DNA from: Alphaproteobacteria bacterium bin52
Lineage (GTDB): Bacteria > Pseudomonadota > Alphaproteobacteria > Thalassobaculales > Thalassobaculaceae
Assembly: GCA_002238645.1 (NCBI GenBank)
Contig: MPMT01000007.1
Span: 7,502-71,501, forward strand
Reading direction: 5' to 3'
Length of the DNA: 64,000 nucleotides
Shown here: one piece after another, positions 2,950-38,633 of the stretch
Position numbering within the stretch: position 1 is the stretch's first letter
Layout of the letters: the number at the start of each line of letters is the position of its first letter
Program-made: the position numbers and the translations under genes
Notes under the pieces: generated by a model
Database searches by the model: none
Told to the model about the DNA's origin: nothing
Seen by the model: only the letters and a program-made list of their open reading frames with translations

Positions 2950-3119
2950 TCGGCACTGAACTTCGGGTGAGTCCACCCGCGGTGAAACCGGGGCCTCGCG
3001 CCCCGGTTTTGCTGTCGAAACACCGCAGCCCGGTCGGCAACCGGACAGTGCGGCCGCCTGCGGGCCGCAACGCAGGGTGAGGCGCCCTGCACCGCGCCGA
3101 CGCGGTCAGACGCACGCAT

Positions 3120-4661: not shown

Positions 4662-4828
4662 GCCACCGGTCGTGGCGGGCGAGCGGGGCATTCCGGACCC
4701 GGAAGGGCACTTCACGGCCGTTCTTGTCGCGGGCCGTGTTGTGTCGGCCGGAAGTCTGGCGTAGATTTCGCACGATCGGGATCCGGGGGTGACCGTCGGC
4801 CCGACCAGGAACGGCTTGGGGAGAGGCA

Positions 4829-19876: not shown

Positions 19877-20769
19877 TGAGCACGCCCACCCAGCCTTTGT
19901 GGCGATCGATGCTGTACGTGCCGGCCACCAGCGAACGGTTCGTTGCCCGGGCACACGAACGTGGCGCCGACGCCATCAAGATCGACCTCGAGGATGCGGT
20001 CGCCCCGGCCGAGAAGCCGCGCGCCCGCGGCCTGGTCCGTGATGTCGCCCGCGCGGTCTCGCGCGGCGGCGCCGATGTCCTGGTGCGGATCAACCGGCCA
20101 CTGCATCTCGCGGTACCCGACATCGAGGCCTCGGTCTGGCCCGAGGTCGACGGCCTGGTCCTGCCGAAGGTGGATACCGCGCACTTTGTCGAGACCCTGT
20201 GCGAGATGATCGGGGAACTCGAGCGCGAACGCGGAATGGAACACGGCCATACCAGGCTCATGATCCTGATCGAGACCCCGCGCGGCTATGCCAATGTCCG
20301 CGCCATCGCGCAGTCCACGCCGCGGCTCGCGGCCCTTGCCCTCGGCCAGGAGGATTTCGCGGCGGAAATGGGCATGGCTGAGCCGGACGGGCTGCAGCTG
20401 CTGTCGTTCTACCAGGGGGTGCAGGTCGCGGCACGCGAAGCCGGGGTCATGCCCATCGGCTACCCGGGGTCGATCGCGGAGTTTACCGACCTTGCGCTGT
20501 TCCGCTCCAACGTGGAGGCGGCACGCCGGCTCGGGTTCGACGGCGGCGCCTGCATTCACCCCGCACAGGTGCCGATCCTGAACGACGTGTTCACCCCGGG
20601 CGAGGCGGAGGTCGTCCGGGCCGAAGCGATGGTCGCGGCCTACGACGCGGCGATGGCGGCGGGCGACGGCGCCGTCGCCTTCGAGGGCAAGATGATCGAT
20701 GTTCCGGTCGTGGCGCGGGCACAGCGCGTTCTCGACATCCGCGACCGCATCGCGGCGCGGGCCCGGTGA
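19876..20769 (+). CDS. HpcH/HpaI aldolase - citrate lyase beta-subunit-like (CitE/malyl- or citramalyl-CoA lyase family)
   Basis: MSTPTQPLWRSMLYVPATSERFVARAHERGADAIKIDLEDAVAP matches the CitE-family N-terminal pattern. The gene is translationally coupled to the CoA-transferase. Confidence 0.85.
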   Translation: MSTPTQPLWRSMLYVPATSERFVARAHERGADAIKIDLEDAVAPAEKPRARGLVRDVARAVSRGGADVLVRINRPLHLAVPDIEASVWPEVDGLVLPKVDTAHFVETLCEMIGELERERGMEHGHTRLMILIETPRGYANVRAIAQSTPRLAALALGQEDFAAEMGMAEPDGLQLLSFYQGVQVAAREAGVMPIGYPGSIAEFTDLALFRSNVEAARRLGFDGGACIHPAQVPILNDVFTPGEAEVVRAEAMVAAYDAAMAAGDGAVAFEGKMIDVPVVARAQRVLDIRDRIAARAR

Positions 20770-20793
20770 TAGACCCGCGGGCGCGGAACCCAG

Positions 20794-21291
20794 ATGGCTG
20801 ACGTCACCCGCAGCCTCCACCGGCATCCGGTCACCCGCCAGCAGAAGAACCTGTTGCTGGCCGAACCGATCGCCCGGCTGTCGCCGGAACGCTTCCGCGG
20901 CCTTGCCATCGATCCGGCGCTGGTCGACGCCCTGGACCTGAAGTACCTGGCGCTGGTCGCCATCGACTTCGTCATGGAACGCTCCGCCGTTGATGGTGGC
21001 GCGACCGATGAGGAGATCGTCGCGTTTCTCGCGTCCGAAGCGCACTTGATGCAACCTGCCCTGAACCAGGAGGAGTGCCGCCGGATTGGCCGGGTGATCG
21101 TGGACCAGCTCGTCAATGCGCGCGACAGTCACCGGGCGCTCAGCGAACGCTATTTCAGCCGCGACGAAGCGAATCAGAGATCAAAACATACAGCTTTGAT
21201 GTTTGCGACGATAGCACACCAGACCTATTCGAATCCCGTTGAACGCAAACGCGATTTTCGAGATTCAATTGCGTCAACAAGGAAAACTTGA
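20794..21291 (+). CDS. Orphan/chimeric ORF crossing the left junction of the lower-GC cassette (probable 5' gene remnant)
   Basis: The first ~120 codons are high-GC and protein-like (..DPALVDALDLKYLALVAIDFVMERS..EEIVAFLASEAHLMQPALNQEECRRIGRVIVDQLVNA). After about 21170 the composition becomes AT-richer and the reading looks arbitrary up to the stop. Confidence 0.35.
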   Translation: MADVTRSLHRHPVTRQQKNLLLAEPIARLSPERFRGLAIDPALVDALDLKYLALVAIDFVMERSAVDGGATDEEIVAFLASEAHLMQPALNQEECRRIGRVIVDQLVNARDSHRALSERYFSRDEANQRSKHTALMFATIAHQTYSNPVERKRDFRDSIASTRKT

Positions 21292-21353
21292 CTAGAAGTA
21301 GAGTTGCGGGAGGTGGCCGGATTGACGAATGATCGGCCAGTGCGGAGGTTCCA

Positions 21354-23900
21354 TTGCTGAGCTTTTTTTGGAAAATTACTCGAATTATTTTCTTTTACAC
21401 GCTCTATTTTTTTGCCGCTTTAATGATTGTCACCTTTGTTTTGCAGTCTTGGTCAGACGGTGGCCAGATGCTGTTTGCGTTCGGTGTTCCTGTTATTCTG
21501 GTCTGGTGGCACGAGAGGAGACGATCTCAAAAAGTTGCCGCCAAATCCGTTGCCGAGGAAAGCTCGAATACACGACCATCCCAACCAGAGCCAGCGGCGC
21601 GGCCCAGTGCCTACGAAAAACGTGTCGAGCGCAAGCGCGCTAGAACTCGCGAAGTCGATGCTCCCCAAGCATCGTCGTCGGCGCAGGCCTATGCCCCTCC
21701 AAAGCGGGACTCCGCCGAGATCGTTCGCGCCGGAAAGTCTGCGGTACCGGCTCTTGCAGCAGCCGCTGAAAGAAAGCAGCCTGCGCGAGTGGCATCGACC
21801 ACATCGGCGCGATCACGGAAAAGCGGGTGGGTCCCGTCTGGCGAAACGGCAAGCGTGGCAGGCCGCAACATCGGTGGAATGATCTATGTGGGCACCCCTC
21901 CGTTGCTGAACACCTACGGGTATCGCGACAAGTGCCGGGCCTATATCGATCCGTCCCTTTCGATCGCCCGCTCGGGCATCGACAAAGCTGGCGACGGCAT
22001 GCCCTATTGGCCGGGGTACTCAGATATTTCGCCCCAATGCCGGGCAACCTATTTGGAGTGGCTGGCCAGTGGGCGAAGCAACGCCTCCTACAACCCTGGC
22101 TATATGTTCCTGTACTTCTACGGGCTTGAACGCCGCTTCTTCGTCGACCAGCCAAACGAAGATGCCAAGGATATCATCAAGGAGGTTCGGCGGTTGCAAT
22201 CGCTCTACCCCGACAACCACTCCGTTGGACGATATCTAGGCGAGTTCCTTGACATCGCGATGCTTGCCGAAACCGATCTCAACTCGATCGAACCTGTTTT
22301 CGAACGACAGAGTTGGGAACTGCCGTTCTCACTGAAATACGCAATCGGTGCTCGGATCGACAAAGGCAAAAACTTGACCGCTGACTGGCTGCTAAGTTGG
22401 TTGATCTGCCATCCTGAAAGCAATCTGAGAACTTCCGCCACGCGCTGCCGTGACGAGTTCATCGCTCTCTTTCGCATGAAATTTGAACAGCGTTTCCCTG
22501 ACGGGCTTAAAGTCAACAAACCCAGGAAGAAGCTTACGGCGTCCTATCGTGCCGCTTCCAGTGAGTTCCAGGGTACGACCAACCCTACCGTCAATGGCAA
22601 ACCGGTCCCGGATATCTCCGGGTTGCGGAAGCCAATCGAGATTGCACAAGAGCTGGCCGATGAGGTTATGAACGACCTCGACAAACTGAGCCGTTTCTTG
22701 GGCCGAAATCCTGATGGCCGCGGGAGTGTTCAAGCTCATGCCTTGCTGCCATCCCAACTGTGGCAATCATTTCCGTCTGAGGAAATAGACCGCTTGAAGT
22801 CATGGGCTAGCGATGTCGTCGACCAAGGTGGATTGGTACCGCTGGAGGAGGTGATACGGCGTATGGAGGGCGAATCAAACGAGAAGATCAGGAAGCGGCA
22901 GATGACAGGAGCTGCGGATGCTTTGGCGCGGCTTGGCTTTGGTTTGGCGCCCGACCCTCGGTTCGCGCTACGATCTCCCAAACCGGAAGAACCGGTTGTT
23001 CTGTTCAGCCTGGGCGAACCCATCGAAAAGCTGGAAGAAGTTTCTGACAGCTATCGGAGCGCTTTGGTGGAATTGGCGCTCGGGTCATTCGTCGCCCATG
23101 CAGACGGTCGCATCGCGGAGCCTGAGCGCAAGGCGCTTGAGGAGCAAGCCTCTGCCGCGTCGCTCGGTGATCATGAACGTCGTAGGCTCCGCGCAAACCT
23201 TGAATGGTTTCTTGCCGTGCCACCGGACATGACGCTTTTGCGGCGAAAACTGAAGGAAGTTGACCAGGACAGTCAAACCGCCATGCGGGTGGCGTTGGTT
23301 AGCGCTGCACACGCCGATGGAATCATTCACTCCGACGAAGTCGCGAGCATTGAGAAACTCTACAAGGCCTTGGGCCTTGATCCTACGCTTGCCTATTCGG
23401 ACCTGCATGCGGGTGAAGTTGCGGATGGTCCGCGCACGGTTCGGCCTTTTCAGCCGGGTCGTCCAGGCGAAGCGATCCCCGAACCGGAAAAAGCCAGCGG
23501 GGCAAAGCTCGATGCCTCGCGGATTGCGGCGATCCGTTCGGACACGGAGCGGGTGGCGTCCCTCCTCGGTCAGATTTTTAATGTCGAAGAAGAAGAAAAC
23601 GGCGTCTCCGCTTCTGACAACCAAGGCCTGCTGGCAGGGCTTGATCCGAAGCACGGTGCCCTGGTTCTAGAATTGGTTGGCCGGGAGCATTGGTCAGAGG
23701 CCGAGTTTGAGCGGCTCTGCGTTACGCATGGTTTGATGGCCTCCGGGGCGTTGGAAGTCGTGAACGAATGGGCCTTCGAGACCTACGACGACGCGCTTCT
23801 CGATGAATATGATGGATACGAGGTGTCTCCGGACATTGCGGAGGCAGTAAAGGATAATATGGAAGCGGAGGGCAGGGATGTCAAAATTGAAACCACGTGA
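21354..23900 (+). CDS. sngA: TerB-N / TerB / TerB-C domain protein (Shango SngA-like)
   Basis: TTG start is preceded by GGAGGT. The N-terminus is a TM helix. The protein carries a TerB-N-like block (MPYWPGYSDISPQCRATYLEWLASGRSN..GYMFLYFYGLERRFF). It also has a TerB-like block (LVELALGSFVAHADGRIAEPERKALEE) and a TerB-C-like tail (..EHWSEAEFERLCVTHGLMASGALEVVNEWAFE). Confidence 0.8.
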   Translation: MLSFFWKITRIIFFYTLYFFAALMIVTFVLQSWSDGGQMLFAFGVPVILVWWHERRRSQKVAAKSVAEESSNTRPSQPEPAARPSAYEKRVERKRARTREVDAPQASSSAQAYAPPKRDSAEIVRAGKSAVPALAAAAERKQPARVASTTSARSRKSGWVPSGETASVAGRNIGGMIYVGTPPLLNTYGYRDKCRAYIDPSLSIARSGIDKAGDGMPYWPGYSDISPQCRATYLEWLASGRSNASYNPGYMFLYFYGLERRFFVDQPNEDAKDIIKEVRRLQSLYPDNHSVGRYLGEFLDIAMLAETDLNSIEPVFERQSWELPFSLKYAIGARIDKGKNLTADWLLSWLICHPESNLRTSATRCRDEFIALFRMKFEQRFPDGLKVNKPRKKLTASYRAASSEFQGTTNPTVNGKPVPDISGLRKPIEIAQELADEVMNDLDKLSRFLGRNPDGRGSVQAHALLPSQLWQSFPSEEIDRLKSWASDVVDQGGLVPLEEVIRRMEGESNEKIRKRQMTGAADALARLGFGLAPDPRFALRSPKPEEPVVLFSLGEPIEKLEEVSDSYRSALVELALGSFVAHADGRIAEPERKALEEQASAASLGDHERRRLRANLEWFLAVPPDMTLLRRKLKEVDQDSQTAMRVALVSAAHADGIIHSDEVASIEKLYKALGLDPTLAYSDLHAGEVADGPRTVRPFQPGRPGEAIPEPEKASGAKLDASRIAAIRSDTERVASLLGQIFNVEEEENGVSASDNQGLLAGLDPKHGALVLELVGREHWSEAEFERLCVTHGLMASGALEVVNEWAFETYDDALLDEYDGYEVSPDIAEAVKDNMEAEGRDVKIETT

Positions 23901-25185
23901 GCGCGATGCGATTGTACAGGCGCTGCGGGCCGGGGTCGTGCCCAAGCTTGGCCTAAGCCACATCCAGGTAGGCCGCGTCCGGGAAATCGAAGAACTCGTC
24001 AAAGACATGGACCGGATATCGGATGGCGGTTCGGCTATCCGGTTCATTGTTGGCGAATACGGGTCGGGCAAAACATTCTTCATGAACCTCATCCGGCTCG
24101 TTGCCCTCGAAAAGGGTCTGGTCGTGATGTTCGCGGACCTGGCGCCAGACCGGCGCATTCACGCCACGGGAGGGCAAGCTAGGGGGCTCTATGCCGAGAT
24201 GGCCCGAAACCTTTCAACGCGGACGAAACAAGATGGAGGGGCTTTGGCCAGTGTCGTGGAGCGGTTCGTCAGCCAAGCTCACCGCGACGCCGAAGAGCGC
24301 GATTTGCCCACGGGCTCTGTCATTCGGGAACGCCTAGGTCACTTCGAAGAACTCACTGGGGGTTTTGAGTTCGCAGAGGTCGTCCGGCGATATTGGGAAG
24401 GCCATGAGACGGGAGACGACGAACTGAAATCTGCCGCCTTGAGATGGCTGCGCGGTGAATTCGCCACACGCACTGACGCCCGAAAGGCTCTCGGTGTGCG
24501 CACGATCATCGACGATGCGAGAGTCTATGACCACCTTAAGCTGATGTCGGCATTTGTGTGCGAGGCCGGCTACAAGGGACTGCTTGTTGGCCTTGATGAG
24601 ATGGTGAACCTCTACAAGCTCACCTCTTCCCAGGCTCGCAACGCGAATTACGAGCAAATCCTCCGTATCCTCAACGATGTGCTGCAAGGCAGTGCTGAGA
24701 ACCTTGGTTTCCTCATGGGTGGCACACCGGAGTTTCTGATGAACACGCGTCGGGGGCTTTACAGTTACGAAGCCCTCCAGTCACGTTTGGCCGAAAACAC
24801 CTTCGCGCGCGACGGATTGGTCGATCTTTCCGGGCCGGTTGTTCGGCTTGCCAGCTTGACCCCCGAGGATCTCTTTGTGCTTCTGGGCAATGTTCGGCGC
24901 ATCATGCAGGACGACGCCAGCGCTTTGCCAGACGATGCGCTGGAGGCCTTCATGGCGCACTGTTCGGATCGTATCGGCGAAGCCTATTTTCGCACGCCGC
25001 GCAATACGGTGATGGCCTTCGTGAACTTGCTTTCCGTGCTTGAGCAAAATCCCGGTGTCGAATGGAACGATCTGATTGAAGAGATCGAGGTCGCGGAGGA
25101 CCTCGGCGAAGACATGACGGAGGTGGACGAGGAAATTGGCGCGCAAGACTCCGGTGACGATGATCTGATCAGCTTCAAACTCTGA
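23878..25185 (+). CDS. sngB: P-loop ATPase of the DUF2791 / BREX-type ATP-binding family (Shango SngB-like)
   Basis: The gene overlaps sngA by 23 nt. It has Walker A GEYGSGKT (24052-24075) within VGRVREIEELVKDMDRISDGGSAIRFIVGEYGSGKTFFMNLI, as I recall for DUF2791 proteins. Confidence 0.8.
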   Translation: MSKLKPRERDAIVQALRAGVVPKLGLSHIQVGRVREIEELVKDMDRISDGGSAIRFIVGEYGSGKTFFMNLIRLVALEKGLVVMFADLAPDRRIHATGGQARGLYAEMARNLSTRTKQDGGALASVVERFVSQAHRDAEERDLPTGSVIRERLGHFEELTGGFEFAEVVRRYWEGHETGDDELKSAALRWLRGEFATRTDARKALGVRTIIDDARVYDHLKLMSAFVCEAGYKGLLVGLDEMVNLYKLTSSQARNANYEQILRILNDVLQGSAENLGFLMGGTPEFLMNTRRGLYSYEALQSRLAENTFARDGLVDLSGPVVRLASLTPEDLFVLLGNVRRIMQDDASALPDDALEAFMAHCSDRIGEAYFRTPRNTVMAFVNLLSVLEQNPGVEWNDLIEEIEVAEDLGEDMTEVDEEIGAQDSGDDDLISFKL

Positions 25186-25190
25186 CGCCG

Positions 25191-27362
25191 ATGAGCAGTG
25201 CGTTCGATAAACTTGCAAGGCCTGTCCAGAAATGGATACGCCAGCAGGGCTGGCGCGAGCTTCGAGACATCCAGGCGCGATCCATCCGAACGATCTGCGA
25301 CAGCAATGCCGACTTGATCGTCGCGGCATCGACGGCAGGCGGAAAGACTGAGGCGGCGTTCCTGCCGCTGATTTCGCAAGTTCTTAATGAGCCCCCTGAC
25401 GGCTCGGGATTTGACCTGCTCTATATTGGTCCGCTCAAGGCATTGATCACAGATCAAGCCATGAGGCTGGAGGGCATCTGCCAGGAGGCAGAGATGCCGG
25501 TTGTTCCTTGGCATGGGGATATTTCGCAGTCGATCAAAACCCGCGCGTTGAAATTTCCCAGAGGGATCCTGCTGATCACGCCTGAGTCGCTTGAGGCGCT
25601 GTTCATCCGTCGTGGTTTAGAACTCCTTCGCCTGTTTGGTGCGACACGGACCGTCGTGATCGACGAGTTACACACGGTGCTCGACAGCGAGCGTGGCGTG
25701 CAGCTCCGTTCTCTGCTGACCCGCCTCGAGCTGGTGGACAACCGCCCGATCCGCCGCATAGGTCTGTCCGCCACGCTTGGCGATATGGGCCTCGCCAAGG
25801 CCTATCTACGCCCGGACAACGCTAGCGCTGTTCAACTGATCGAGGCTGAGGGCGGTGAAGCCGAACTGCGGCTCCAACTCCGCGGCTACCTGTCAGGCGA
25901 TAAAGACGAAAGCAGCCCATCCGCAACCGATGCGATCGCGGCACATCTGTTCAATCACCTTCGTGGCAGCGACAACCTGGTGTTCGCCGGAGCACGCCAG
26001 CGAGTCGAGATCTACGCGGATCGTTTGCGAGAACTCTGCGAAAAAGAACACCTGCCGCAGGAATTCTATCCCCACCACGCGAGCCTCTCCCGCGAACACC
26101 GTGACTTCGTAGAGCGCCGTCTCAAGGACCCCGCGAAACCGACAACTGCGGTTTGCACGTCGACGCTCGAGCTCGGCATAGACATTGGTGACGTGACCTG
26201 TGTGGCCCAAATCGGGGCGCCATTCAGCGTTGCCACGTTGCGACAACGGCTCGGCCGATCAGGCCGGCGCGAGGGACAGCCAGCAATCCTAAGGCAGTAC
26301 GCTGTCGAGACCAAGCTGACGCCGGAGAGCAGTTTCGTTGATCGCCTCCGTCTTGGCCTGGTCAGGTCTATCGCGATGATCGACTTGCTTTTGGAAGGCT
26401 GGTGCGAACCGCCAAAACCGCAGGCGCTTCATCTCTCGACACTGGTCCACCAGTTGTTATCGGTGATTGCGCAGCGTGGCGGTGCTTCCGCAGGCGCTAT
26501 ATACAATGTGCTCTGCCGTGAGGGCCCATTCCGAAAGGTCACGACCGAGGTCTTCGCGGATGTGCTGCGCGCGATCGGTCACCCTGAGACCGGTTTGATC
26601 GAGCAGTCTGGAAGCGGCCTCCTGCTCTTAGGTTCCGCGGGCGAGAGGTTGGTCGAGCATTACAGCTTCTATGCCGTGTTCCAGACGCCTGAGGAGTTCC
26701 GTCTGGTTGCAGATGGGCGGGACCTTGGCACCCTGCCAATCGACAATATCCTTGCACCGGGTATGCTTCTGATCTTTTCGGGGCGGCGTTGGGCGGTTCA
26801 AGAAATCCATGATCGCGAAAAGGTCATCGTGGTCAAACCCGCCAAGGCAGGTGTGCCGCCTGTCTTTGGCGGCGCTGCGGGTGACATTCATGACACCGTG
26901 ATTGATCGGATGTTCGCGGTTCTCGAAGGAGATGCCAAACCGGTCTACATGGACACGGTTTCCCTTTCGATGCTTGAGGAAGCGCGAGCCCATTATGTTC
27001 AACTAGGGTTTCGGACTAACAACATCCACAGTCTCGGTGAGCACACATCGATCATCGCAACGCGAGTTGGGACGGTGAAGACATCAACCCTCGCTCTCGC
27101 ACTCAGAAGCATAGGGTTTTCGGTCGAGCAACATGACGGGTTCTTGCTTGGGGAAGCTGGGGATGAAACACCCGATATTCAATCGGCACTAGGGGAAATT
27201 GTGTCCGGCGAACCCGTAGACCTGTTTGCCGGTGCAGGAAACCTAGTTACCGAGAAGTTTCATCGTTACCTGTCGCTGCCCCTTTTGGAGTTGGATGCCG
27301 CTTCTTCCAAGCTTGTGCCCGATCTTCTTCCGAGGGTGGCCAGTCGGATTTTTCAGGAATGA
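25191..27362 (+). CDS. sngC: DEAD/DEAH-box (Lhr-like) helicase (Shango SngC-like)
   Basis: The gene starts 5 nt after the sngB stop. It has helicase motif I AASTAGGKT and motif II VIDELH, plus later motifs (VFAGARQRVE, TSTLELGIDIGD, QRLGRSGRR). Confidence 0.85.
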   Translation: MSSAFDKLARPVQKWIRQQGWRELRDIQARSIRTICDSNADLIVAASTAGGKTEAAFLPLISQVLNEPPDGSGFDLLYIGPLKALITDQAMRLEGICQEAEMPVVPWHGDISQSIKTRALKFPRGILLITPESLEALFIRRGLELLRLFGATRTVVIDELHTVLDSERGVQLRSLLTRLELVDNRPIRRIGLSATLGDMGLAKAYLRPDNASAVQLIEAEGGEAELRLQLRGYLSGDKDESSPSATDAIAAHLFNHLRGSDNLVFAGARQRVEIYADRLRELCEKEHLPQEFYPHHASLSREHRDFVERRLKDPAKPTTAVCTSTLELGIDIGDVTCVAQIGAPFSVATLRQRLGRSGRREGQPAILRQYAVETKLTPESSFVDRLRLGLVRSIAMIDLLLEGWCEPPKPQALHLSTLVHQLLSVIAQRGGASAGAIYNVLCREGPFRKVTTEVFADVLRAIGHPETGLIEQSGSGLLLLGSAGERLVEHYSFYAVFQTPEEFRLVADGRDLGTLPIDNILAPGMLLIFSGRRWAVQEIHDREKVIVVKPAKAGVPPVFGGAAGDIHDTVIDRMFAVLEGDAKPVYMDTVSLSMLEEARAHYVQLGFRTNNIHSLGEHTSIIATRVGTVKTSTLALALRSIGFSVEQHDGFLLGEAGDETPDIQSALGEIVSGEPVDLFAGAGNLVTEKFHRYLSLPLLELDAASSKLVPDLLPRVASRIFQE

Positions 27363-27514
27363 AGAACGCATTCCGGGTGAACACGGTGATCGAGCGCGTT
27401 CTCTACCCGTGCGGCATCGACCGCGACGATGGCGATCTCGCTGTCGGGCGTGAGGGTCTGGATGCGGCCGACGAAGCCGGATTTCTGCCGGGTGAACTTA
27501 CCGATTTGCGGCAT
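27353..27514 (-). pseudogene. DUF736-family protein fragment (conjugative-element associated), 3'-truncated
   Basis: MPQIGKFTRQKSGFVGRIQTLTPDSEIAIVAV matches the DUF736 N-terminus (xIGxFTxxxxGFxGxIxTLT). Only ~53 codons remain, and the end overlaps the sngC stop. Confidence 0.55.
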
Positions 27515-27582
27515 GGGATTTTCCTTTCCTGTGTGGCGGAGTGGGCCGGGAACGGCCGGCATGTCCGCTCACGTGCAGGCGT

Positions 27583-28041
27583 TCACCGCGTTGACGCCTG
27601 CCGTTCGAGGCGGCCGTCGCCGTTCTCGTCGGTCCAGATCGGCACGACGCGCGCAGCGACGGATGCGAGGGGAAGCGGCCCGAAATACCGACCGTCCAGG
27701 CTGTCTTCCGTGTCCCAGTTCATCAGGAACACATCGCCATTGGCGATTACTCGGCAGCCCTGCCAAGAGGGCAGTTGGCGGCCCCGGCTGTCGCGTTCAC
27801 GGGCTTTGCCATAGGCGTGATCGTAAGCAGTGATCTGCGCGCCAATCCGGCACACTTGGGTGCCGGGGAGCACCAGAACGCGTTTGATCAGAGGAACGCC
27901 GAGCGGAAGATAGCCACGCGCGTCGAGGAAGCCCGCGAGATCGTCCGGCAACATGACCGCGACGAGATCGCCGACCTCAAGCCGCCCCACAGGGCGACCG
28001 AAATAGAGGCCGATCGACGCGCTGGCCGAGGCATTCCAGAT
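27583..28041 (-). pseudogene. traF: Conjugal-transfer signal peptidase TraF (S26 family), N-terminally truncated
   Basis: ..IWNASASASIGLYFGRPVGRLEVGDLV..GYLPLGVPLIKRVLVLPG..GDVFLMNWDTEDSLDGRYFGPLP matches Rhizobiales-type TraF. The N-terminal TM part and start codon are missing, and the open frame stops at the IS fragment junction (about 28042). Confidence 0.65.
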
Positions 28042-28043
28042 CC

Positions 28044-28424
28044 ATCACCGGCGTCGGACCGATCGCCGCCGCAGCCCTGATCGCCTGGATGCCGGAACTT
28101 GGCACGATCGGCAACCGGCAGGCTGCCGCTCTGCTCGGTGTTGCCCCGTACGCCCGCGACAGCGGGACATCCTCCTGAAACCGCCATGTCCGGGGGCCCC
28201 GCAGACGACCGCGCGATGTTGTCTACATGGCCGCGTTGTCGGCAATCAACTGGAACCCGGACCTGCGCAACTTCGCCAAACGGTTCCGCAATGCCGGCAA
28301 GGCCCACAAGGTGGGTGTTGTCGCGGTCATGCGCGAACTGATCGTCCTGGCCAATATCCTGCTTGGCCAGCAGCGCTCCTGGACCCCACAGCCGCCCGTC
28401 ACCGCAGCAGAAACGAACGCGTGA
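28044..28424 (+). mobile_element. IS110-family transposase, 3' fragment with in-frame stop (IS remnant)
   Basis: ITGVGPIAAAALIAWMPELGTIGNRQAAALLGVAPYARDSG..(TGA 28176-28178)..RHVRGPRRRPRDVVYMAALSAINWNPDLRNFAKRFRNAGKAHKVGVVAVMRELIVLANILL is the C-terminal (Transposase_20) half of IS110-type transposases. The N-terminal DEDD half is absent. Confidence 0.65.
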
Positions 28425-28527
28425 TCACACTCAACGAGATGCTGTCAATCGATCGAACCAGTCAAAGACACGCCGCGAGTGCGTGGCGCCCGGAAGCGAT
28501 CGAGGGCAACGACCCCGGGGATAACCT

Positions 28528-28547
28528 TGTGGATAAACTGTGGATAA
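28528..28547 (+). promoter_or_regulatory. Two tandem perfect DnaA-box nonamers (TGTGGATAA) spaced 11 bp start-to-start
   Basis: TGTGGATAA occurs at 28528-28536 and again at 28539-28547, in the same orientation. It is the reverse complement of the TTATCCACA consensus. Function is unproven. Confidence 0.4.
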
Positions 28548-28589
28548 ATCCCAAACCCGCCAACCACGCCCCCTTGACGCGAAACATGG

Positions 28590-31383
28590 ATGCTCGCCGA
28601 TACCGGTCAGCAGCATCATGACGCCGAGGACAACTACCGGCTGCATGCTGCCGCACTCGCCGACATCGAACGGATGCGGTCCGAGGCCCAGGGCCTGCAG
28701 CGGAGCATCGACGCGGCCAATGCCGACCTCGCACCGCAGCGCGACCACCTCGCGCGCACGGGAGCCCACCTGAAGGCCACGCTGCTCCACCATGTCGAAC
28801 AGCGCCGGAAGCACCTGGCGGAGCACGAACGTGCGTGTCGATCGCTTGAGGATGATGCCGCCCGAACCGATGACAGGCGCCAGAGACTGTTGAGCACTCG
28901 GGACACGGAACGCGAGGAAACAACCAGGTTCGCCACCATGCTCGACACTGCGGCCCGGGCGGCCGAACGGTTGCGGGAACAGGGCGTTCTCGAAATCGAG
29001 GCGGCAGGAGAGGATGCGAGCCGCCAAGCCTGCCTCGAATGCCGCATCACACTGCGCGAAGGCCGTGCCCGGCTCGATGCAGGGCTTGAGCGGGATCGCG
29101 GTCCCGCACCGGGACGCGCTCGAAGCCGCGCGTCGCGCGATTGCGAACGCCCCCGAACCGAACAGACCGCTGATGGTGGCCACCGCCGACGACACGCCTT
29201 CGGACGCGCCTGATGACAGGTTCGTCATCCCGCACCCGCGTGATGCGGCCTACAGCCAGCTGGCCGCCCGGGACGGGCAGTCCCAGGTCGAGGATGAGCT
29301 TCAGGACCTCGCGCGACGCATCGACGAGCTCCGGCCCCGGCTTGAGCGCCTCGAAGAACTGCATCGCACTCACACCCTGTGGCGCCGCACCGCGCCTGAA
29401 CGAAAGGAGCTGCTCAAGCGTATCGACGAGGCGGAGCGCACCCGGGCCAGATATGACCGGGAAGTCGAGCAACTCGATGCATCGGCCGAGGCTCACGCAA
29501 ATCGGGCCAGGGACCATCGCCGCGCTGCTACCCAGGCGGACCACGAGGCCGTAGTCCACCGGACCCGCGCCGGTCGGGCCCGGGAACAGTTCGAGGAACA
29601 TGAACGCCATGAGACCGACTGGAAGCGCGAACAGCTCGCACATGCCGACCGGGCGGAACTGGCCATACGCGACGCCGAAGCAGCCCTTGCGGAGCGCGAC
29701 CGGCCGAACGACCAGGCCCGGGCGGAGGCCGGGGAAGCCGGAGCAGCGGCGCGCGAGGCAGCCGGTTTCGAGACCGAGGCCGATGCCGTCTCGCCCGTCG
29801 CCGGCCCGGGCTCCGTTTACCGAGACCTTGCTACACTGCGCGACGGTTTCAACGCCGAACGCAAGAGCTTGGAAGCACTTGAAGGCGGCAGGGTTGACCG
29901 GCTGCGCGGCGAAAAGGATGGCTTGGACAAGCAGCTCGTGCGCGCCGAACAGAAGTACGGCGCCGACCATCATCAATTCGACCGCGAGCGGGTGCGCGCG
30001 CTACTGGAGCAGAGCCTGGTTGAGGATGGCGCCCGCAGGGCCGCGACCACCCTCGACGCTGCCCGCGCCGCGCTTACCGATGCCGAGGTCGAGGAACGCC
30101 ACACCCGACACCAGTTCGAGCAGGAGCAGCGCCGGTTTGCCGAGATATTCGGCACTGGCGATGCCGACGACCTTTGCGATACGGACGATCTCGATGCGCT
30201 GCGCCGAAACGCGCAGGTCGGGGCCGAGACCCGTGAACGGGAGGCGCGCAGACACGAGCAGGACGCGGAGGCGGCCAGCTCGACTGCCGCAGCGGCCGAA
30301 GCCACCGCCGGGACTTTCCGGAACCGGGCCCGTGAGATTACGGGTCACCTGCCCGACGGGTTCGGCACCCCCGGCCGGGTTGCACAAGTGCCGGACGATC
30401 AGGCACTCGACGATGCCGTCGATACCCTGGTCCGCACACTGCGCGATGGCAACCGGACCCTCGCCGATGCCGAACAGGCGCTTCTCGACCGGCACGAGGA
30501 GGAACGCGGGTTCGCCACGTCCGACGGGTTCCGCGTCCTGAAGGGCGAAAGCCAGGTCGCCTCCAATCTCGCCGCCAACTCGGCCCGTGACGCTGCCGAT
30601 GCCGCGGAGCAGACCGCCCGGCTGATCGACGACAGACTGGCGACGATCGATCACGACCTTGCACGACTCGATCATGACCTTGCAACCTGCACCGGCGAAC
30701 TCGACATGCTGCTGCGCAGGGCGCTCGGAATCCTGGGCCGGATGGTGCGCGACGGGCGTATCCCCGACGGCGTACCGCGGTTCGGTGGCCAGAGCGTGTT
30801 CCGGATCGGGACCGACCTGTCGCGTCTTGCTTCCGACCGCAGACGGGACATCCTCGAGCAATACGTGACCGATCTGGCCGAGTCGAAACGGGTCCCCGAC
30901 ACCGGCCAGAACCTGGCGGCGGAGCTCGTGGACCGGCTGCGGGTTGCCCGCGGCATTTCCAGGCTCGGCATAAGAATTCTGAAACCGAAAGGTGAGAACG
31001 AGACCGAGTAAATGCCGCTCGAACAGACTGCGGTCTCCGGGGGCGAGCTTCTGACGGCGGCAATGATGATCTACCTCGTGGTCGCGCGTCTGCGTGCGGA
31101 GGAACTGCACGGCACAACAGGCGATGCCGGGATCCTGATGATGGACAACCCGCTGGGCAAGGCGAACAAGGCCCTGCTGGTCAAGACCCAGATCGGCCTT
31201 GCCGACGCGATGGGCATCCAGCTGTTCTATGCCACCGGCATCCAGGACACGAACGCGCTCGGGGAGTTCGAGAACATAGTCCGGCTGCGCCGGGCCTGGC
31301 GCGAACTCGGCACCGACAGGATCCATCTCGCGGTCGAGGCGATGCAGGCCCACGTCGACAGCTTGGAGCGGACAAATGGGTGA
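28590..31383 (+). pseudogene. SMC-like (JetC/MksB-like) ATPase remnant: coiled-coil arms plus C-terminal head, lacking the N-terminal Walker A head
   Basis: The long Glu/Arg/Ala/Leu coiled-coil reading is split between frame 0 (28590-29213) and frame 1 (29014-31011). That requires a frameshift near 29085-29110. An in-frame TAA (31009-31011) is followed directly by MPLEQTAVSGGELLTAAMMIY...GILMMDNPLGKANKALL (ABC/SMC signature SGGE plus a Walker-B-like segment). No P-loop head lies upstream. Confidence 0.55.
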
Positions 31384-32427
31384 CTTCGTCGGACACCTGC
31401 GCGGCCTCGGCAAGCGGCGGTTCACGCTCGAGGAACTGCGAACTGCGCATCTCGCCGCCTTCCCCGAGGCGGCGGACGCCCTTGCCCCGCGTCGGTTGCT
31501 GCTCGAGGCGCTCGAAGACGCACGGGCAGCCGGTCACATCGCCCTGCCGCACACCAAGTACTGGGAACGGACCGGGACGCCGCACCTGCCGAAGTCGGCT
31601 ACGCTGTACGCTGAAGGGCTCGCCGCAGGACCGGTACCCTGGCCGGTGGCCTGGGTCCCCGAACTTGCCTTTGCCTACAGCGAACGGGGCCGGTACCGCA
31701 CCGCGCTCACCGCCATCAACCGCTTCCTGCTCAGGCACCGGAACACTGCCCTGCGCGAGGTACCGGTCAACGAACGGTCGCTGCAGATCTTCGGCAACGA
31801 GAAGCGGCTCGAGACCGATCTCGACACCGACGGCTCCACCCTGTTTGGTGGCCGCATCCCCCTGGGACTGATCGGCTGCCGCCCGGTCACGCCGCCGCTT
31901 GCGTTCGAGAAACCGAACCGGCCCGCGCCCGGGATGCCGGTCCTGGTGCTGGAGAACCTGCATCCGTGGGAGAGTTTCCGGCTGTGGAACGCGACGCGGG
32001 GCAGCTACGCCGCCATCGCCTGCGGTTACGGCAACGCCCTGCGCAAGACGCACAGGCAGCTCGAACAGGTCGCGGAGCTGCCGGCGCATCCGGACTGCTC
32101 TACTTCGGCGACCTGGATCCGCCGGGTCTGGAGATCCCGACCGCGGTCAACCGCGAGCGGCAGGCCCGGGGTCTTGCGCCGCTCGAGCCGCACTGCGGAC
32201 TCTATCGCTGGCTACTGCGCCACGGCTGCCGGTGGCTCAGCGATGCCGGCGCGAAGCAAAGCCGCGCCCCGGCTGACCTGTCAAACTAGCTGCCGGACGA
32301 CATCGCCGCCGGTCTCGCGGAGCTGTGGGCAGCCGGAGAGGTAATCCCGCAGGAGAGTTTCAGCACCGATCAGCTGGCCGGACCCGACGCCGTCTGGGTC
32401 CTGCCCGGCCGGGCCGTGCCGTCGTGA
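31376..32427 (+). pseudogene. JetD/MksG-like (DUF2220 Toprim) protein, disrupted
   Basis: The gene overlaps the preceding ORF by 8 nt. It contains VLVLENLHPWESF. After a frame change near 32090-32100 it reads LLYFGDLDPPGLEIP, a Toprim/DUF2220-like motif. An in-frame TAG at 32287-32289 follows, and the reading continues to 32427. Confidence 0.6.
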
Positions 32428-34191: not shown

Positions 34192-34579
34192 CGCAAACGC
34201 GGACAGGTCCTTCCGGAAACAGCCGCAAGCGGCGCGCCCGGCACCATGACGCGAAACCTGCCGGCGGCGCCATCAGCGGGCCCGCGACCGCCACCCGTGC
34301 GGTCCGGTTCCGCTGCGCCGCCCCCTCCACGCGACTGGCCGCGCCCATTGACCAGGCGTCCGACGCACCCTTCGCGCACCTCCTGCCGGCGCGCAGATCA
34401 GTCTTCGGAATGACCCGGAACGATCGGTTGTCGGCGGGACCTCGTTGGCCGACGGTGCGGACTTTGGTGGACTGGGTGTGCTTCGCGGGAGCGTCTGTGC
34501 GACGTCACCGGGAGGCCGGACCCGAGCCGTGGGTTGCACGGCCATTCTCGTCGGCTTCTGCGCGTGCTGGAGGGATACG

Positions 34580-35605
34580 TCAAAGGGTGAGCCCTTCGGG
34601 CAATGCGACCTCTCCCGCTTCGCCCCTTGCCAACGGCACGGTCCGGTCCACTAGATCGCGCACGAGTTGTTGATGGCTGCCGAGCTTTCGGTTTCTTCCC
34701 AGGTGCTCCAGCCGATCCGCCATCGAGCGCATGAGGTCCGTCCCGCCGCGCACCTCCACACTCGGATCGGCGATACAGACGCGGAGCAGCCCTCGGACGA
34801 TGAACACGGTGTAGCGAAGCTCGAGTGCCCACTGGCCCTTGCCGCCGGGACGCCGGTCCGAGCGGCCCGCAGAGAGCCAGTCGAGCGCCGTGGTCGTGAG
34901 ACGCGTCACCTGGGAACGAAGTGCCGGGCGAGCCGCGAGCAGATCAGTCGTTTCCATTCTGCGGCCCATCGGATGGCTGATCGCCGCCAGCAAGAATTTG
35001 TCCGGTGTCGTGCCGTCCCAACAGCCAAGCAGGGTCTCCCAGACCGTCGCGAGGGCTGAGACCGTGTTCGTGCTCCGGCCGATCCCGGAGTAGGCGGCCC
35101 ACGCGCTGAAGGGGTTGTCGAGCCCGAGGCGGTCGGCAACGGCGCGGCCTTCGTCGGAGGTGCGCGCGAGCCCGGAAGCGAGCCTCAACGCGAGGGAGTC
35201 GGGGGCGTTCGTGAACATCCATGTCGGTACGGTGTGGACTCGATTGAGCGAGGCTCCCCTCTTGACCGTGCGTTGGCCGGTCAGCACTTCCTCAAAGCGA
35301 CCGACCATCGCGTCCCCGGCGTCGTTCACCAGGCGTCGACGTTCGCGTTCGGTCGTCTTGGCCTTGGGGGGGTCCGGATCTCGTACCCAAGGGGGGTCCC
35401 CCGCGCTGTCGATCGGATACCGGAGGTCGCTCCATTTCGAGTTGAAGATGTCGTAAAGACTCTTGTAGAGGTCGACAATCCTGGATCCTTCGGTGCGATC
35501 GTCTCGCCACCAGTCGCGAAGCTCGGCCAAATGGCTCTCGAGTTCGAGCCAAGCGTCCTCGTCGGCCTCGAAGACGTAAAGCAGAGGGATGGCCGCGACG
35601 TTCAT
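34580..35605 (-). CDS. Unknown 341-aa protein, last gene (E) of the McrBC-derived five-gene operon
   Basis: ATG 35603-35605 lies 13 nt downstream of the gene D stop and is preceded by a purine-rich AAGAGAG. The upstream part of track ORF 34580-36316 is an out-of-frame overlap with D. Composition looks coding, but I recognise no family. Confidence 0.6.
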   Translation of the reverse strand: MNVAAIPLLYVFEADEDAWLELESHLAELRDWWRDDRTEGSRIVDLYKSLYDIFNSKWSDLRYPIDSAGDPPWVRDPDPPKAKTTERERRRLVNDAGDAMVGRFEEVLTGQRTVKRGASLNRVHTVPTWMFTNAPDSLALRLASGLARTSDEGRAVADRLGLDNPFSAWAAYSGIGRSTNTVSALATVWETLLGCWDGTTPDKFLLAAISHPMGRRMETTDLLAARPALRSQVTRLTTTALDWLSAGRSDRRPGGKGQWALELRYTVFIVRGLLRVCIADPSVEVRGGTDLMRSMADRLEHLGRNRKLGSHQQLVRDLVDRTVPLARGEAGEVALPEGLTL

Positions 35606-35618
35606 CTCTCTTACCCGT

Positions 35619-38600
35619 TCAGTCGGGGTCCGACACACGAAGGATGGCGGGATGGGTCGCGATCTCACGACCGTCCAGCCCGTAAGGGTGGTGGTACAGC
35701 ACGAGTTGCGGCTCGCCTCCAAGCGGTCGCACGCGCACCCTCGGCTCAAGGCGCGTGTAGCCCCCGTGAAGTGCGCTGCGGTCGAGTTTGACCTCCTGGC
35801 GGTACTTCTCGTTGCCGGCCCCGGCGAGGAAGCCCTCCTGCCACTGGCCCTCCAGCCGTCGTCGCAGCTTGACCGGAACGCGCCATTCACCGGGCTGTAT
35901 CGAGAGCAGCACCTCATGCTGGGCTGGGGTAGTCCATAGGCCTCGGCCGGCTTCCAGCGCCTCGCGCTCGGGGATGAGGCGGAGCCACCAGCGTCCGTCC
36001 TCGTCTTCCTCGCATTTGTCGAGCGCAAGCCCCTCCGGCGGGGCGGCGACCTCGATGGCCAGGCTTTCGACGTGGTCGAGCCAGCAGACGTCGCCTTCGT
36101 CGAGGCGGCGTCCGATCTCCCAAGCACCCCGGAGGGTCTGCTCCGGCTCGACGGCCAGTACGGTGAGACCCGGCAACGCCGAGCTGATTTCTCGGGCTCC
36201 CGCGTCGCTCCAGCCCGGGATCGGACTCTCGACGAGAATTCGGCGGCAGCCGGTGCGTTCGGACAGGGCTCGGAGCGTTGCAACGAGCGATTCGTCGACG
36301 TCAATGGGGCGTGCATTGGGATCGTGACGACGCCGTATGGGAACCGCCTCGCCCCGCGTGAAGAGAAACGTCGATGTATTGCCCTCGTGCGGTTTTATCC
36401 GAGCCGCATCAAGGTGGAGGATGTCGGTCTGCGTCTTCAGATCGTCGACGTTCACTCCGGTTCGAGACCACGCGGCCTCGGCGGCGCGAAGTCGGCGGGG
36501 CCAGGGGGCCTCCCGGCCGGTGGCGACCGCGGAACCGCGAGTCATCCGCTCGACCAACAGCGGGACCTCGGCGCGCTGCCACGGCCGCAGCCGCGTATGG
36601 GTGAGGGCGACTTCGCCGTCCACCTGAACGATGAGGTAGTCTCCGGGCGCTCCACCGGTCAGTTTGTGGCCCTCCGTCACTGCGACGGACCGCCAGACGA
36701 GGAGGCAGCGCCGGTGCGGCCCGACGGCTTTGGAGAGGCCGTCGGCGACGCGTCGCTGTCTCTCTCCCGCTCGTAGCCCAGTGTCGGGCACGATCGCGAC
36801 GGCGAGCGGGTCGTCGCCCATGAGGCGGCGTACTGCGGACGAGACGAGTTCGTTGGCGAGGTCCATGGTCTCGATGTCGCCCAAAGGGATGTATGAGGCG
36901 GACCCGGTGGTCGGCTGGATCCTGGCTTGCGCGGCGACTTCTGTTGCCTCCCCGATCCCCCTTGCGCGAAGCGCCGTTCCGAGGAAGCGGACGTCGACCG
37001 ATCCGGTCGAATCTTCGCGGGCGAGGCGGGAGAACGAGGAGCGGAGATCGAGAGAGACGATGCCCGACCGGCTGCCGGATCGCCGGAGGCGTCCCAAGGG
37101 TGGTTCCGGGGCCAGCTTGGCGCCTCTTGGAACGCTGTGGAGGGTGGATGCGGTCGCTCGTTCGAGGAGCTTTCTTGTCCAGACCCGCCAGTTCCTCGCG
37201 CCGGTGTTGGTCGGGAGGGTGACGAGTCTTTCGCGCCGAGCCCGGCCGATCCAGTCAGCGCGATCGCTCGCGATCACGTGCAGCGCCGGACCGGGACCGA
37301 GCACGGTTGCGATCGCGCCGATCATGCAGCGGTCGTCCGTCGCGACCGAGAGGGAGGCGGAGGCGTGCTTGCCGACACGCAGGACGAGCGACGGGCCGTC
37401 GTCGGTCCAGTGTCGTCCCTGCGCCGGGGCGTCGCGCCGGATCGCGAGCGGGCCGCTCGCCACCACGAGTGGGGAGCTCTCGCCGAGCATGGCGCATATG
37501 GTTGCCTGGGCCTCATCCCGGCGGGTGAGCCCCTGCCAGATCCACTGCTGCTCGGCGCGCTGTTCCTGGCGGAGGAGGTCCAACCACGCCCCGAGGACAC
37601 GCCGGTAGCGCTCGTCGTGACGAAGCGCAAAACTCCGGTTCGTCGCCGTCGCGGCGTCGTGGGCCGGGGCTTGACGCGCGCCTTGGAGACGGAGTCCGTC
37701 GGCGACGCGCCGTGCCCGGTTCTGCATCGAACGTACGAGCTCGGCTCCGTGCGCCATATCGCCGCGCTCGGCAAGCCAAGACCTGGCCTCCGTGTCGTAG
37801 AGCGCCGCATAGGCGACCACGACGCGGTTCTCCAGGGTGTCGGTAGTCGCGTAGCGCTCCGGCGTCACCATCCTCTGCCGGGGGCCGCAGCGCTCCGCCG
37901 TCGAGCGTCCGGCTTGTCTGCACAGCCACCGGATCGTCTTGGCGTCCACCTCGCGTACCTTCGACAGGCGCACCGGGCGGTGGCGGCGGCGGAGGAGTCG
38001 ACGTGGGCTCCCCTCAATGCCCGCGAGCACAGGCAACAATGCCCGGGCCTGTTCCCGGAGGAGCTCTCCCAACGGATCGACCGCCTCCGGGTCGGCCTCG
38101 CTCGCGAGAATCGCGGCCGATGTGCGCCAGAGCACGGACTGGTCATGGCAGACCGCGCTCGCGTCCGCGACGCGCTTCATGCGGTTGGCGGCGCGGTCCA
38201 ACCTATCGAGGGTCCGTCCGGAGCGTTGCTTTGTTGCCGATGTACCCGCAGCTTGGCGCCGCCCTTCCCATGACTCGACGTTGATCGTGAACGACTGGTC
38301 GAGTGTTACCCAGACACGAATTCGACTGACCCGGGCCGGTCGGGCGGGGAGGTGCCACGCCAACCATTCGGCATCGATGTCGAGGCTCCCCGTGCCGCGC
38401 CCGCGGGTTCGCGGAAGATGTTGCCGGCTTCCCAGATAGATCCAGGGTGGAACCTCGCAGAGGGTGGAGTGCTCCGTGGGGGAGAGTCGATCGACGATCA
38501 GAATCGCATCGGCACGGGCGCGGTCCGGACCAAGCTCCTCCCCGCTCCGGACCGGTTGCACGACCGCCGAGCCGTCCCCGGCAACGGCAGCATGCAGATC

Positions 38601-38630
38601 GTACAGACTCCGGGCGACGCGAATCCTCAA
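35619..38630 (-). CDS. 1003-aa protein (gene D): McrC/DUF2357-like N-terminal half fused to a putative degenerate Hsp70/actin-like ATPase-fold half
   Basis: The TTG start lies 3 nt after the gene C stop; an alternative GTG sits at codon 23. The TLENR motif (aa 265-269, nt 37824-37838) is followed by the RYRRVLGAWLDLL helix, as in McrC-type partners. Residues ~520-850 follow the Hsp70 motif order (IVSLDLRSSFS; LAVAIVPDTGLRAGERQRRVADGLSKA; LIVQVDGEV; RILVESPIPGW; AVEPEQTLRGAWEIG). Confidence 0.7.
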   Translation of the reverse strand: MRIRVARSLYDLHAAVAGDGSAVVQPVRSGEELGPDRARADAILIVDRLSPTEHSTLCEVPPWIYLGSRQHLPRTRGRGTGSLDIDAEWLAWHLPARPARVSRIRVWVTLDQSFTINVESWEGRRQAAGTSATKQRSGRTLDRLDRAANRMKRVADASAVCHDQSVLWRTSAAILASEADPEAVDPLGELLREQARALLPVLAGIEGSPRRLLRRRHRPVRLSKVREVDAKTIRWLCRQAGRSTAERCGPRQRMVTPERYATTDTLENRVVVAYAALYDTEARSWLAERGDMAHGAELVRSMQNRARRVADGLRLQGARQAPAHDAATATNRSFALRHDERYRRVLGAWLDLLRQEQRAEQQWIWQGLTRRDEAQATICAMLGESSPLVVASGPLAIRRDAPAQGRHWTDDGPSLVLRVGKHASASLSVATDDRCMIGAIATVLGPGPALHVIASDRADWIGRARRERLVTLPTNTGARNWRVWTRKLLERATASTLHSVPRGAKLAPEPPLGRLRRSGSRSGIVSLDLRSSFSRLAREDSTGSVDVRFLGTALRARGIGEATEVAAQARIQPTTGSASYIPLGDIETMDLANELVSSAVRRLMGDDPLAVAIVPDTGLRAGERQRRVADGLSKAVGPHRRCLLVWRSVAVTEGHKLTGGAPGDYLIVQVDGEVALTHTRLRPWQRAEVPLLVERMTRGSAVATGREAPWPRRLRAAEAAWSRTGVNVDDLKTQTDILHLDAARIKPHEGNTSTFLFTRGEAVPIRRRHDPNARPIDVDESLVATLRALSERTGCRRILVESPIPGWSDAGAREISSALPGLTVLAVEPEQTLRGAWEIGRRLDEGDVCWLDHVESLAIEVAAPPEGLALDKCEEDEDGRWWLRLIPEREALEAGRGLWTTPAQHEVLLSIQPGEWRVPVKLRRRLEGQWQEGFLAGAGNEKYRQEVKLDRSALHGGYTRLEPRVRVRPLGGEPQLVLYHHPYGLDGREIATHPAILRVSDPD

Positions 38631-38633
38631 TTG

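Follow-up and report, generated by a model that had tools for sequence, protein, structure and literature searches.

A Shango-type sngABC operon, probably acquired horizontally, in a foreign block among Wadjet remnants of Alphaproteobacteria bacterium bin52

Background

Shango (SngABC) is a three-gene defence system whose representatives from Pseudomonas aeruginosa PA14 and Escherichia coli displayed anti-phage activity, with phage plating reduced 10-100-fold (Millman et al. 2022, 10.1101/2022.05.11.491447; Johnson et al. 2023, PMC10250203). As cited by Millman et al. (10.1101/2022.05.11.491447), the triad was first predicted by comparative genomics by Anantharaman, Iyer and Aravind in 2012. 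Here, a cassette of this type (sngA-sngB-sngC) is described from a 64,000-nucleotide stretch of Alphaproteobacteria bacterium bin52 (GenBank assembly GCA_002238645.1, contig MPMT01000007.1, positions 7,502 to 71,501), hereafter the window, in whose coordinates all positions are given. Like the systems of PA14 and E. coli, it combines a TerB-type protein with a BrxD-like ATPase and an Lhr-like DEAD/DEAH helicase, encoded in identical order; it differs from them in belonging to an alphaproteobacterial lineage and in being known here from its sequence alone.

The TerB domain was originally described from tellurite-resistance operons. Membrane surveillance has been proposed in published work on TerB-type defence proteins, and a preprint of September 2025 still regarded it as unclear what TerB domains do in defence; no mechanism for Shango was reported in the literature searched. 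A cassette from plasmid 4 of Sulfitobacter faviae SCSIO W1865, closely related to the one considered here, has already been published as Shango (PMC10221251).

Gene organization and assignment to Shango

All three open reading frames (ORFs) lie on the forward strand: sngA at 21354-23900 (848 amino acids), sngB at 23878-25185 (435 amino acids) and sngC at 25191-27362 (723 amino acids). sngA and sngB overlap by 23 nucleotides (ATGTCAAAATTGAAACCACGTGA) while five nucleotides (CGCCG) separate sngB from sngC. Both the coordinates and the junctions agree exactly with those of an earlier note, which had been made from the letters of this stretch and had described three co-directional genes. Adjacent and co-directional, the genes form a single operon as in other Shango systems, and no stop codon, frameshift or lost motif was encountered over the ~6 kb of the cassette. 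sngA starts with TTG, five nucleotides downstream of a GGAGG Shine-Dalgarno sequence (21344-21348), and the ATG of plasmid relatives aligns to the CTG found one codon further (21354-21359).

Each of the three genes displayed SngA, SngB or SngC, respectively, as its best PADLOC match by a wide margin. The Shango-type triad recognized in the earlier note was upheld, since profile searches found TerB_N, TerB_C and PF10923 and PADLOC chose Shango. The cassette is very probably an intact and unremarkable representative of the known system.

Homology to other Shango cassettes (blastn) included a conserved leader on the forward strand (21258-21353), likely the promoter region, which carries the GGAGG sequence. 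It begins at 21258 with two cassettes (L038 and L039) and within 21335-21459 with most others. A consensus scan 5' of sngA revealed no convincing (strong sigma-70-like) promoter. At the other end of the operon, a forward-strand ORF of 151 codons (27359-27814), overlapping the sngC stop codon (ATGA), had the appearance of a fourth gene; it overlaps, in antisense, the DUF736 and TraF fragments described below and is most likely spurious.

SngA, a TerB-type protein with a hydrophobic N-terminal hairpin

SngA contained the Pfam domains TerB_N (4.2e-64), TerB (1e-7) and TerB_C (1.3e-24), as expected of a SngA protein, and the PADLOC SngA model (2.6e-101) was its sole PADLOC match; NCBIfam offered no model for it. 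The protein begins with a hydrophobic helical hairpin (about residues 2-57) and a basic juxtamembrane stretch, followed by a disordered linker (69-155), TerB_N (161-361), a middle alpha/beta region, TerB (574-678) and TerB_C (712-832). An AlphaFold2 model built with 100 homologues (mean pLDDT 78.5) displayed helices at residues 2-28 and 35-69, disorder at 69-155, a confident core at 156-685 and a TerB_C module at 721-840. The N-terminus is strongly hydrophobic, a Kyte-Doolittle window of 19 residues peaking at 2.37 (residues 11-29), and its first helix is predicted to be a clear transmembrane segment. These domains and this hydropathy peak bear out the description in the earlier note of a TerB-N/TerB/TerB-C protein with an N-terminal transmembrane helix.

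Although short, the second of the hydrophobic stretches (MLFAFGVPVILVWW) is conserved better than the first transmembrane helix. Its residues G36, L40, F41, P46, V50, W51, W52, E54, R56 and R57 were nearly invariant, and it is followed by a basic cluster, with which a hairpin having both N- and C-termini inside would be consistent. Across homologues, residues 37-57 (21462-21524) and the basic cluster together outconserve the first helix, and this better conservation suggests a specific role for residues 37-57 beyond anchoring. The acidic pairs D584/E591 and D655/E662 of the TerB domain were invariant in 100 homologues.

The hydrophobic hairpin was kept in 97 of the 103 long SngA homologues. 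An exhaustive search yielded relatives in 4005 clusters (50 % identity), with a conserved core corresponding approximately to residues 150-835 and N-terminal heads varying from 0 to ~700 residues ahead of it; the sensor-head region thus appears to be modular. A transmembrane-like segment preceded the core in 63 of 105 distant representatives bearing the TerB_N hallmark, so that a membrane anchor is usual in the family and not peculiar to the bin52 copy. The PADLOC SngA profile comprises only 528 positions for a protein of 848 residues and its match starts at residue 122, which leaves the hairpin and the disordered tether outside the model.

In the AlphaFold2 model, two regions of SngA (~477-552 and 765-824) displayed helix-strand-helix-helix-strand-strand topologies. 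Local resemblances of ~80 residues to winged-helix DNA-binding domains, obtained with Foldseek, were non-significant (probability 0.5-0.8, E ~3), and these matches were discounted as evidence for a DNA-binding module.

SngB and SngC

SngB matched Pfam PF10923 (BrxC_BrxD, formerly DUF2791; 1.7e-151). Its Walker A motif GEYGSGKT (residues 59-66, nucleotides 24052-24075) and its Walker B motif LLVGLDEM (nucleotides 24580-24603) are both intact, in agreement with the DUF2791-type ATPase carrying GEYGSGKT previously noted. The PADLOC SngB model (9.2e-175, 580 bits) clearly outscored BrxD (3.7e-46, 156 bits), and the match to the NCBIfam BrxD equivalog (154 bits) remained below its cut-off of 350. 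A sequence search of SngB against the Protein Data Bank (PDB) gave no match. SngB and the BrxD protein of BREX type 2 have PF10923 in common, while SngB falls under the BrxD cut-off and is accompanied by a TerB-type partner instead of BREX core genes. Pfam and PADLOC scans of flanking ORFs revealed none of the latter (methyltransferase PglX, PglZ, BrxA/B/C), and the locus did not qualify as BREX type 2.

SngC contained the Pfam domains DEAD and Helicase_C and is a superfamily 2 helicase of Lhr-core type. As reported in the earlier note, it displayed AASTAGGKT (motif I, residues 45-53, nucleotides 25323-25349) and DELH (motif II, residues 158-161, nucleotides 25662-25673), to which motifs III (SAT, nucleotides 25767-25775) and VI (QRLGRSGR, nucleotides 26244-26267) can be added. 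The PADLOC SngC model (1.3e-269, 895 bits) likewise exceeded BrxHI (6.5e-111, 370 bits). The nearest NCBIfam model was the ligase-associated DNA-damage-response DEXH helicase TIGR04121, with 220 bits against a cut-off of 850. With these scores under the equivalog cut-offs, SngB and SngC are to be considered relatives of the BrxD and Lhr-type families and not members of them.

The best PDB sequence matches of SngC were Lhr structures 5v9x and 7lhl (1.5e-27). Its full-length AlphaFold2 model (29 homologues, pLDDT 80.8, pTM 0.81) had the Mycobacterium smegmatis Lhr core with single-stranded DNA (5v9x) as top match (E 1.7e-26, TMq 0.68), followed by MrfA. SngC thus shares the four-domain fold of Lhr-core helicases while scoring under the curated family cut-off, and the model suggests that it works like the Lhr core, outside that orthologous group. 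No nuclease-like extra domain was visible in it.

Relatives and horizontal acquisition

The whole cassette was found at ~82 % nucleotide identity on at least 14 plasmids of the Roseobacter group, in the genera Sulfitobacter, Roseovarius, Ruegeria, Phaeobacter, Paracoccus and Sagittula, with mutually unrelated flanks. Alignments covered its full length, and amino-acid identities reached 81-82 % for SngA and 88 % for SngC with examples such as S. faviae SCSIO W1865 plasmid 4, Roseovarius indicus pRIdsm_03 and Sulfitobacter sp. D7 p3SUD7. In the S. faviae copy, SngA (1-2544), SngB (2522-3829) and SngC (3835-6012) are joined by the identical 23-nucleotide overlap and five-nucleotide gap. The bin52 copy differs from these plasmid cassettes in residing among conserved host genes (on a draft contig) and in starting with TTG instead of ATG; its flanks are unrelated to every plasmid context.

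SngB relatives were found in 550 stretches of a collection holding one genome per species, the best 80 of which were compared at locus level for gene order and homology. These 80 loci belonged almost all to Alphaproteobacteria, with SngB identities of up to 97 %. The order A-B-C, with the gene encoding TerB_N and TerB_C first, was kept in 76 of them, and three of the four exceptions were cut by contig ends. Homology between bin52 and the other cassettes was limited to 21258-27365, that is, to the operon and a leader of at most 96 nucleotides, and ended at the sngC stop codon.

The distribution in closer relatives was sporadic. The cassette was absent from the three same-genus genomes, both at the locus and elsewhere, and a SngB homologue was present in only two of the 63 genomes of the host family (none of them among the three congeners).

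Base composition told the cassette apart from its surroundings. GC content was 0.386 in 21354-21480 against 0.687 in 20600-21170, and windows of 500 nucleotides displayed 0.51-0.62 over 21000-27500 against 0.65-0.70 on both sides; the block 21172-27362 had a GC content of 0.572 compared to 0.649 for the whole window. At third codon positions (GC3), the three genes displayed 0.61-0.67 while the reference of 21 host genes in the window displayed 0.828 +/- 0.035 (z -4.5 to -6.1). The AT-richness relative to the flanks that the earlier note had pointed out, for example at 21354-21480, is therefore accompanied by a shift in GC3. In GC content, the cassette (0.57) and the plasmid copies (0.57-0.58) agree.

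Ratios of nonsynonymous to synonymous substitutions (dN/dS) determined against two plasmid copies were 0.11 for sngA, 0.02 for sngB and 0.075 for sngC, with dS ~0.9, and indicate that the cassette has evolved under purifying selection. Horizontal acquisition, as proposed earlier, is borne out by absence from three congeners, a composition like that of the Roseobacter plasmid copies and mobile-element debris alongside. As far as sequence comparison can establish it, the cassette entered a genome of 65-68 % GC by horizontal transfer from a reservoir of plasmids and genomic islands in Alphaproteobacteria.

The insertion site and its Wadjet remnants

In the same-genus genomes G001 and G003, homology to the left flank stopped just after the HpcH-type lyase gene (20769 and 20775 of the window, respectively) and was picked up again shortly ahead of the ABC-F gene, at 32262 and 31768. 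Everything from the HpcH-type lyase to ABC-F can be considered an island, since it is omitted from both. The third congener, G002, shares the window sequence up to 21167 and again from ~28640; between these points it carries four genes of 479, 246, 1442 and 391 amino acids. PADLOC recognized JetA3 (1.2e-81), JetC3 (7.3e-200) and JetD3 (2.7e-69) among them, while the 246-amino-acid protein gave no PADLOC match and was named JetB by its position and size. These genes are predicted to form an intact operon of type III Wadjet, an SMC-like anti-plasmid system (JetABCD), at the same site. Pfam did not recognize the type III Wadjet proteins, including the intact ones of G002, which is why the assignment rests on PADLOC and on collinearity.

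Remnants of the same operon flank the cassette in bin52, all on the forward strand. A jetA stub (20794-21171) retains codons 1-126, with 89.7 % identity to residues 1-126 of G002 JetA (tblastn) and a PADLOC JetA3 match (2.5e-23) to positions 13-131 of 477. It ends where GC content falls (~21170) and the foreign block begins. jetB is absent from the window. The jetC remnant (28602-31380, tblastn with G002 JetC) has lost ~358 residues from its N-terminus, and with them the Walker A head; residues 359-557 are found in frame 3 (28602-29108) and residues 676-1442 in frame 1 (29086-31380), with a frame change and an internal deletion near 29086-29108 and an in-frame TAA at 31009-31011. Only positions 682-1435 of the PADLOC JetC3 profile were matched. 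The jetD pseudogene (31256-32424) is frameshifted near 32081: the tblastn alignment with G002 JetD switched from frame 2 (residues 2-277) to frame 1 (residues 279-391), and its open frame matched positions 11-237 of 345 of the PADLOC JetD3 profile.

The foreign block thus takes the place of jetA from codon 127 onwards, of the entire jetB gene and of ~358 codons at the 5' end of jetC, for which reason Wadjet is considered dead in bin52. The remnants match JetA3, JetC3 and JetD3 and are collinear with the G002 operon, while differing from a type III Wadjet system in having all four genes truncated, missing or frameshifted. No second JetC3 was found in the bin52 genome. dN/dS ratios of the remnants (0.18-0.54) exceeded those of neighbouring host genes (0.04-0.14).

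A second variable island (34300-43600), missing from all three congeners, lies to the right of the ABC-F gene. Its genes (~34580-42525) encode a McrC-like DUF2357 protein of 1003 amino acids and an AAA_5 McrB-like protein matching PADLOC PDC-M26A.

Fragments adjoining the cassette

The foreign block spans ~7.4 kb (21172-28600) and is composed of a junction stretch, the Shango cassette, DUF736 and TraF fragments and the 3' part of an IS110-family element. The junction sequence (21172-21257, 86 bp) matched neither G002 jetA nor any of the 80 related Shango loci. Abutting the sngC stop codon on the reverse strand is a DUF736 fragment (27365-27514) limited to the N-terminal 50 codons (Pfam DUF736 1.9e-8, profile positions 1-44 of 99). 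It is followed on the same strand by a fragment of a TraF-type S26 signal peptidase (27583-28041) devoid of its N-terminus (Pfam Peptidase_S26 4e-21, profile positions 53-167 of 168). The segment 27376-28041 displayed 92.5 % nucleotide identity to pPAN3, a conjugative replicon of Paracoccus pantotrophus, and this homology stopped at 28041. Since the Shango-bearing plasmids reach only ~82 %, the DUF736/TraF piece and the cassette probably had different donors or arrival times.

The last component (28040-28596, forward strand) is the 3' part of an insertion sequence, which we infer to be of the IS110 family from its protein sequence; Pfam gave no match on its translated frame. At least six other copies were found in the genome of bin52 (on contigs C94, C37, C60, C17, C11 and C100), bringing the total to at least seven. 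They were 90-95 % identical and all shared its right terminus, ending at window positions 28594-28597. A contig end forms the start of at least one copy (C37:1-271), and this multi-copy element may contribute to the fragmented assembly. The right end of the fragment in the window is the original insertion point in jetC.

Neither direct nor inverted repeats were found at the borders of the foreign block, and site-specific integration or transposition of the block is consequently unsupported. In the simplest history, jetC would first have been interrupted by the IS110-family element. At least one later rearrangement, either illegitimate or IS-mediated, would have imported the conjugative-element DNA and Shango and deleted the segment from the 3' part of jetA through the 5' part of jetC.

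Proposed function and alternative explanations

The earlier note considered the cassette probably functional. The intact frames and motifs and the dN/dS values of 0.02-0.11 favour this indirectly. The cassette encodes neither a nuclease nor a toxin, which fits the modest 10-100-fold protection conferred by the tested homologues.

As to mechanism, SngA would be held in the inner membrane by its hydrophobic hairpin, with both ends cytoplasmic, and its sensor core, TerB_N-TerB-TerB_C, would be carried along the cytoplasmic side of this membrane by the ~90-residue disordered tether. This core might sense the entry of a phage genome, or else a perturbed membrane signalled by an ion or ligand, with the invariant acidic TerB pairs as its likely detector. 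SngA would then recruit SngB and SngC (a putative Lhr-type 3'-5' translocase) onto the invading DNA, or release them onto it, and ATP-driven unwinding or protein stripping by SngC could block phage replication or bare the DNA to host nucleases. Taken as a whole, a membrane-bound SngA sensor with SngB and SngC acting on invading DNA is a tentative scheme, more doubtful than probable. Still more speculative is the idea of Shango as a membrane sentinel, in which hairpin and tether would position the TerB pairs to detect, at the inner membrane, the phage genome or the leak of ions that comes with its entry, and the nuclease-free SngB-SngC motor pair would be loaded on the entering DNA end. Separately, and equally speculatively, the locus may reflect a trade-off in defence, plasmid-derived DNA with Shango having knocked out Wadjet and so opened the strain to plasmids.

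The locus as a whole is best explained, with a confidence only slightly below that placed in its identity as Shango, as a complete, horizontally acquired Shango operon in a ~7.4-kb block that replaced part of Wadjet. Several observations weigh against one part or another of this explanation. Wadjet may have been inactivated by the Shango block itself, or beforehand by the IS110 insertion. With dS ~0.9 to the nearest plasmid copies, no compared plasmid can be the direct donor, and low dN/dS values mostly reflect history before integration. The TTG start may weaken translation of SngA. The SngA model had no significant Foldseek match in the PDB (best E 0.15) and a sequence search there found no solved relative, because of which a sensor role for SngA can only be conjectured.

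The cassette might nevertheless be intact and yet silent or ineffective, a poorly expressed passenger between pseudogenes that has not had time to decay. Its scrambled surroundings of gene fragments, the TTG where relatives use ATG, the lack of a strong sigma-70-like promoter 5' of sngA in the scan and the blindness of dN/dS to selection before as opposed to after integration would all be compatible with this. However, ~6 kb remained undamaged while the adjoining Wadjet operon acquired a nonsense codon, a frameshift and an internal deletion, and the conserved leader was kept with its good GGAGG Shine-Dalgarno sequence; a mere passenger is accordingly unlikely, though it is the most credible of the alternatives. 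A role in stress or DNA repair, as a membrane-linked module combining TerB (tellurite or metal stress) with an Lhr-type helicase (DNA damage), deserves far less credit. Lhr is a repair helicase, it was the best structural match of SngC, whose nearest NCBIfam model is a DNA-damage-response helicase, and TerB was first known from tellurite-resistance operons. Yet SngC scored only 220 bits where 850 were required, and neither ligase nor other ter genes were encountered nearby among the Pfam-scanned ORFs; in particular, no other Ter-family gene (TerA, TerC, TerD, TerE or TerZ) was matched by Pfam among selected ORFs over 15-44 kb, and the locus did not qualify as a ter operon. A scattered distribution on plasmids and islands, with two positives among the 63 family genomes, is moreover typical of defence cargo and not of housekeeping repair, and homologous systems restrict phages experimentally.

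The least credible proposal, which can practically be set aside, is that the ATPase-helicase pair represents a stray BrxD/BrxHI module of type 2 BREX. It draws on the name of PF10923 (BrxC_BrxD) and on the secondary PADLOC matches to BrxD (3.7e-46) and BrxHI (6.5e-111). Against these, the Shango models scored 3.7-fold (SngB over BrxD) and 2.4-fold (SngC over BrxHI) higher in bits, the BrxD equivalog reached 154 bits out of the 350 of its cut-off, the scanned flanking ORFs included no BREX core gene, and a TerB_N/TerB_C gene stood ahead of the pair in 76 of 80 relatives. A complete Shango operon therefore remains the preferred explanation.

Significance

As a further copy of Shango, the bin52 cassette adds little: the system is already named, was validated in other species and is detected by standard defence finders, and a plasmid relative of ~82 % nucleotide identity has been published as such. 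The alphaproteobacterial lineage to which it belongs is compact and nuclease-free, with a well-conserved hairpin and invariant TerB acidic pairs, which would make it convenient for testing the membrane surveillance idea. The locus itself is a clear natural case of defence-island turnover, in which plasmid- and IS-derived DNA carrying Shango overwrote the anti-plasmid system Wadjet. Because a congener preserves the intact ancestral state, this event can be reconstructed base by base.

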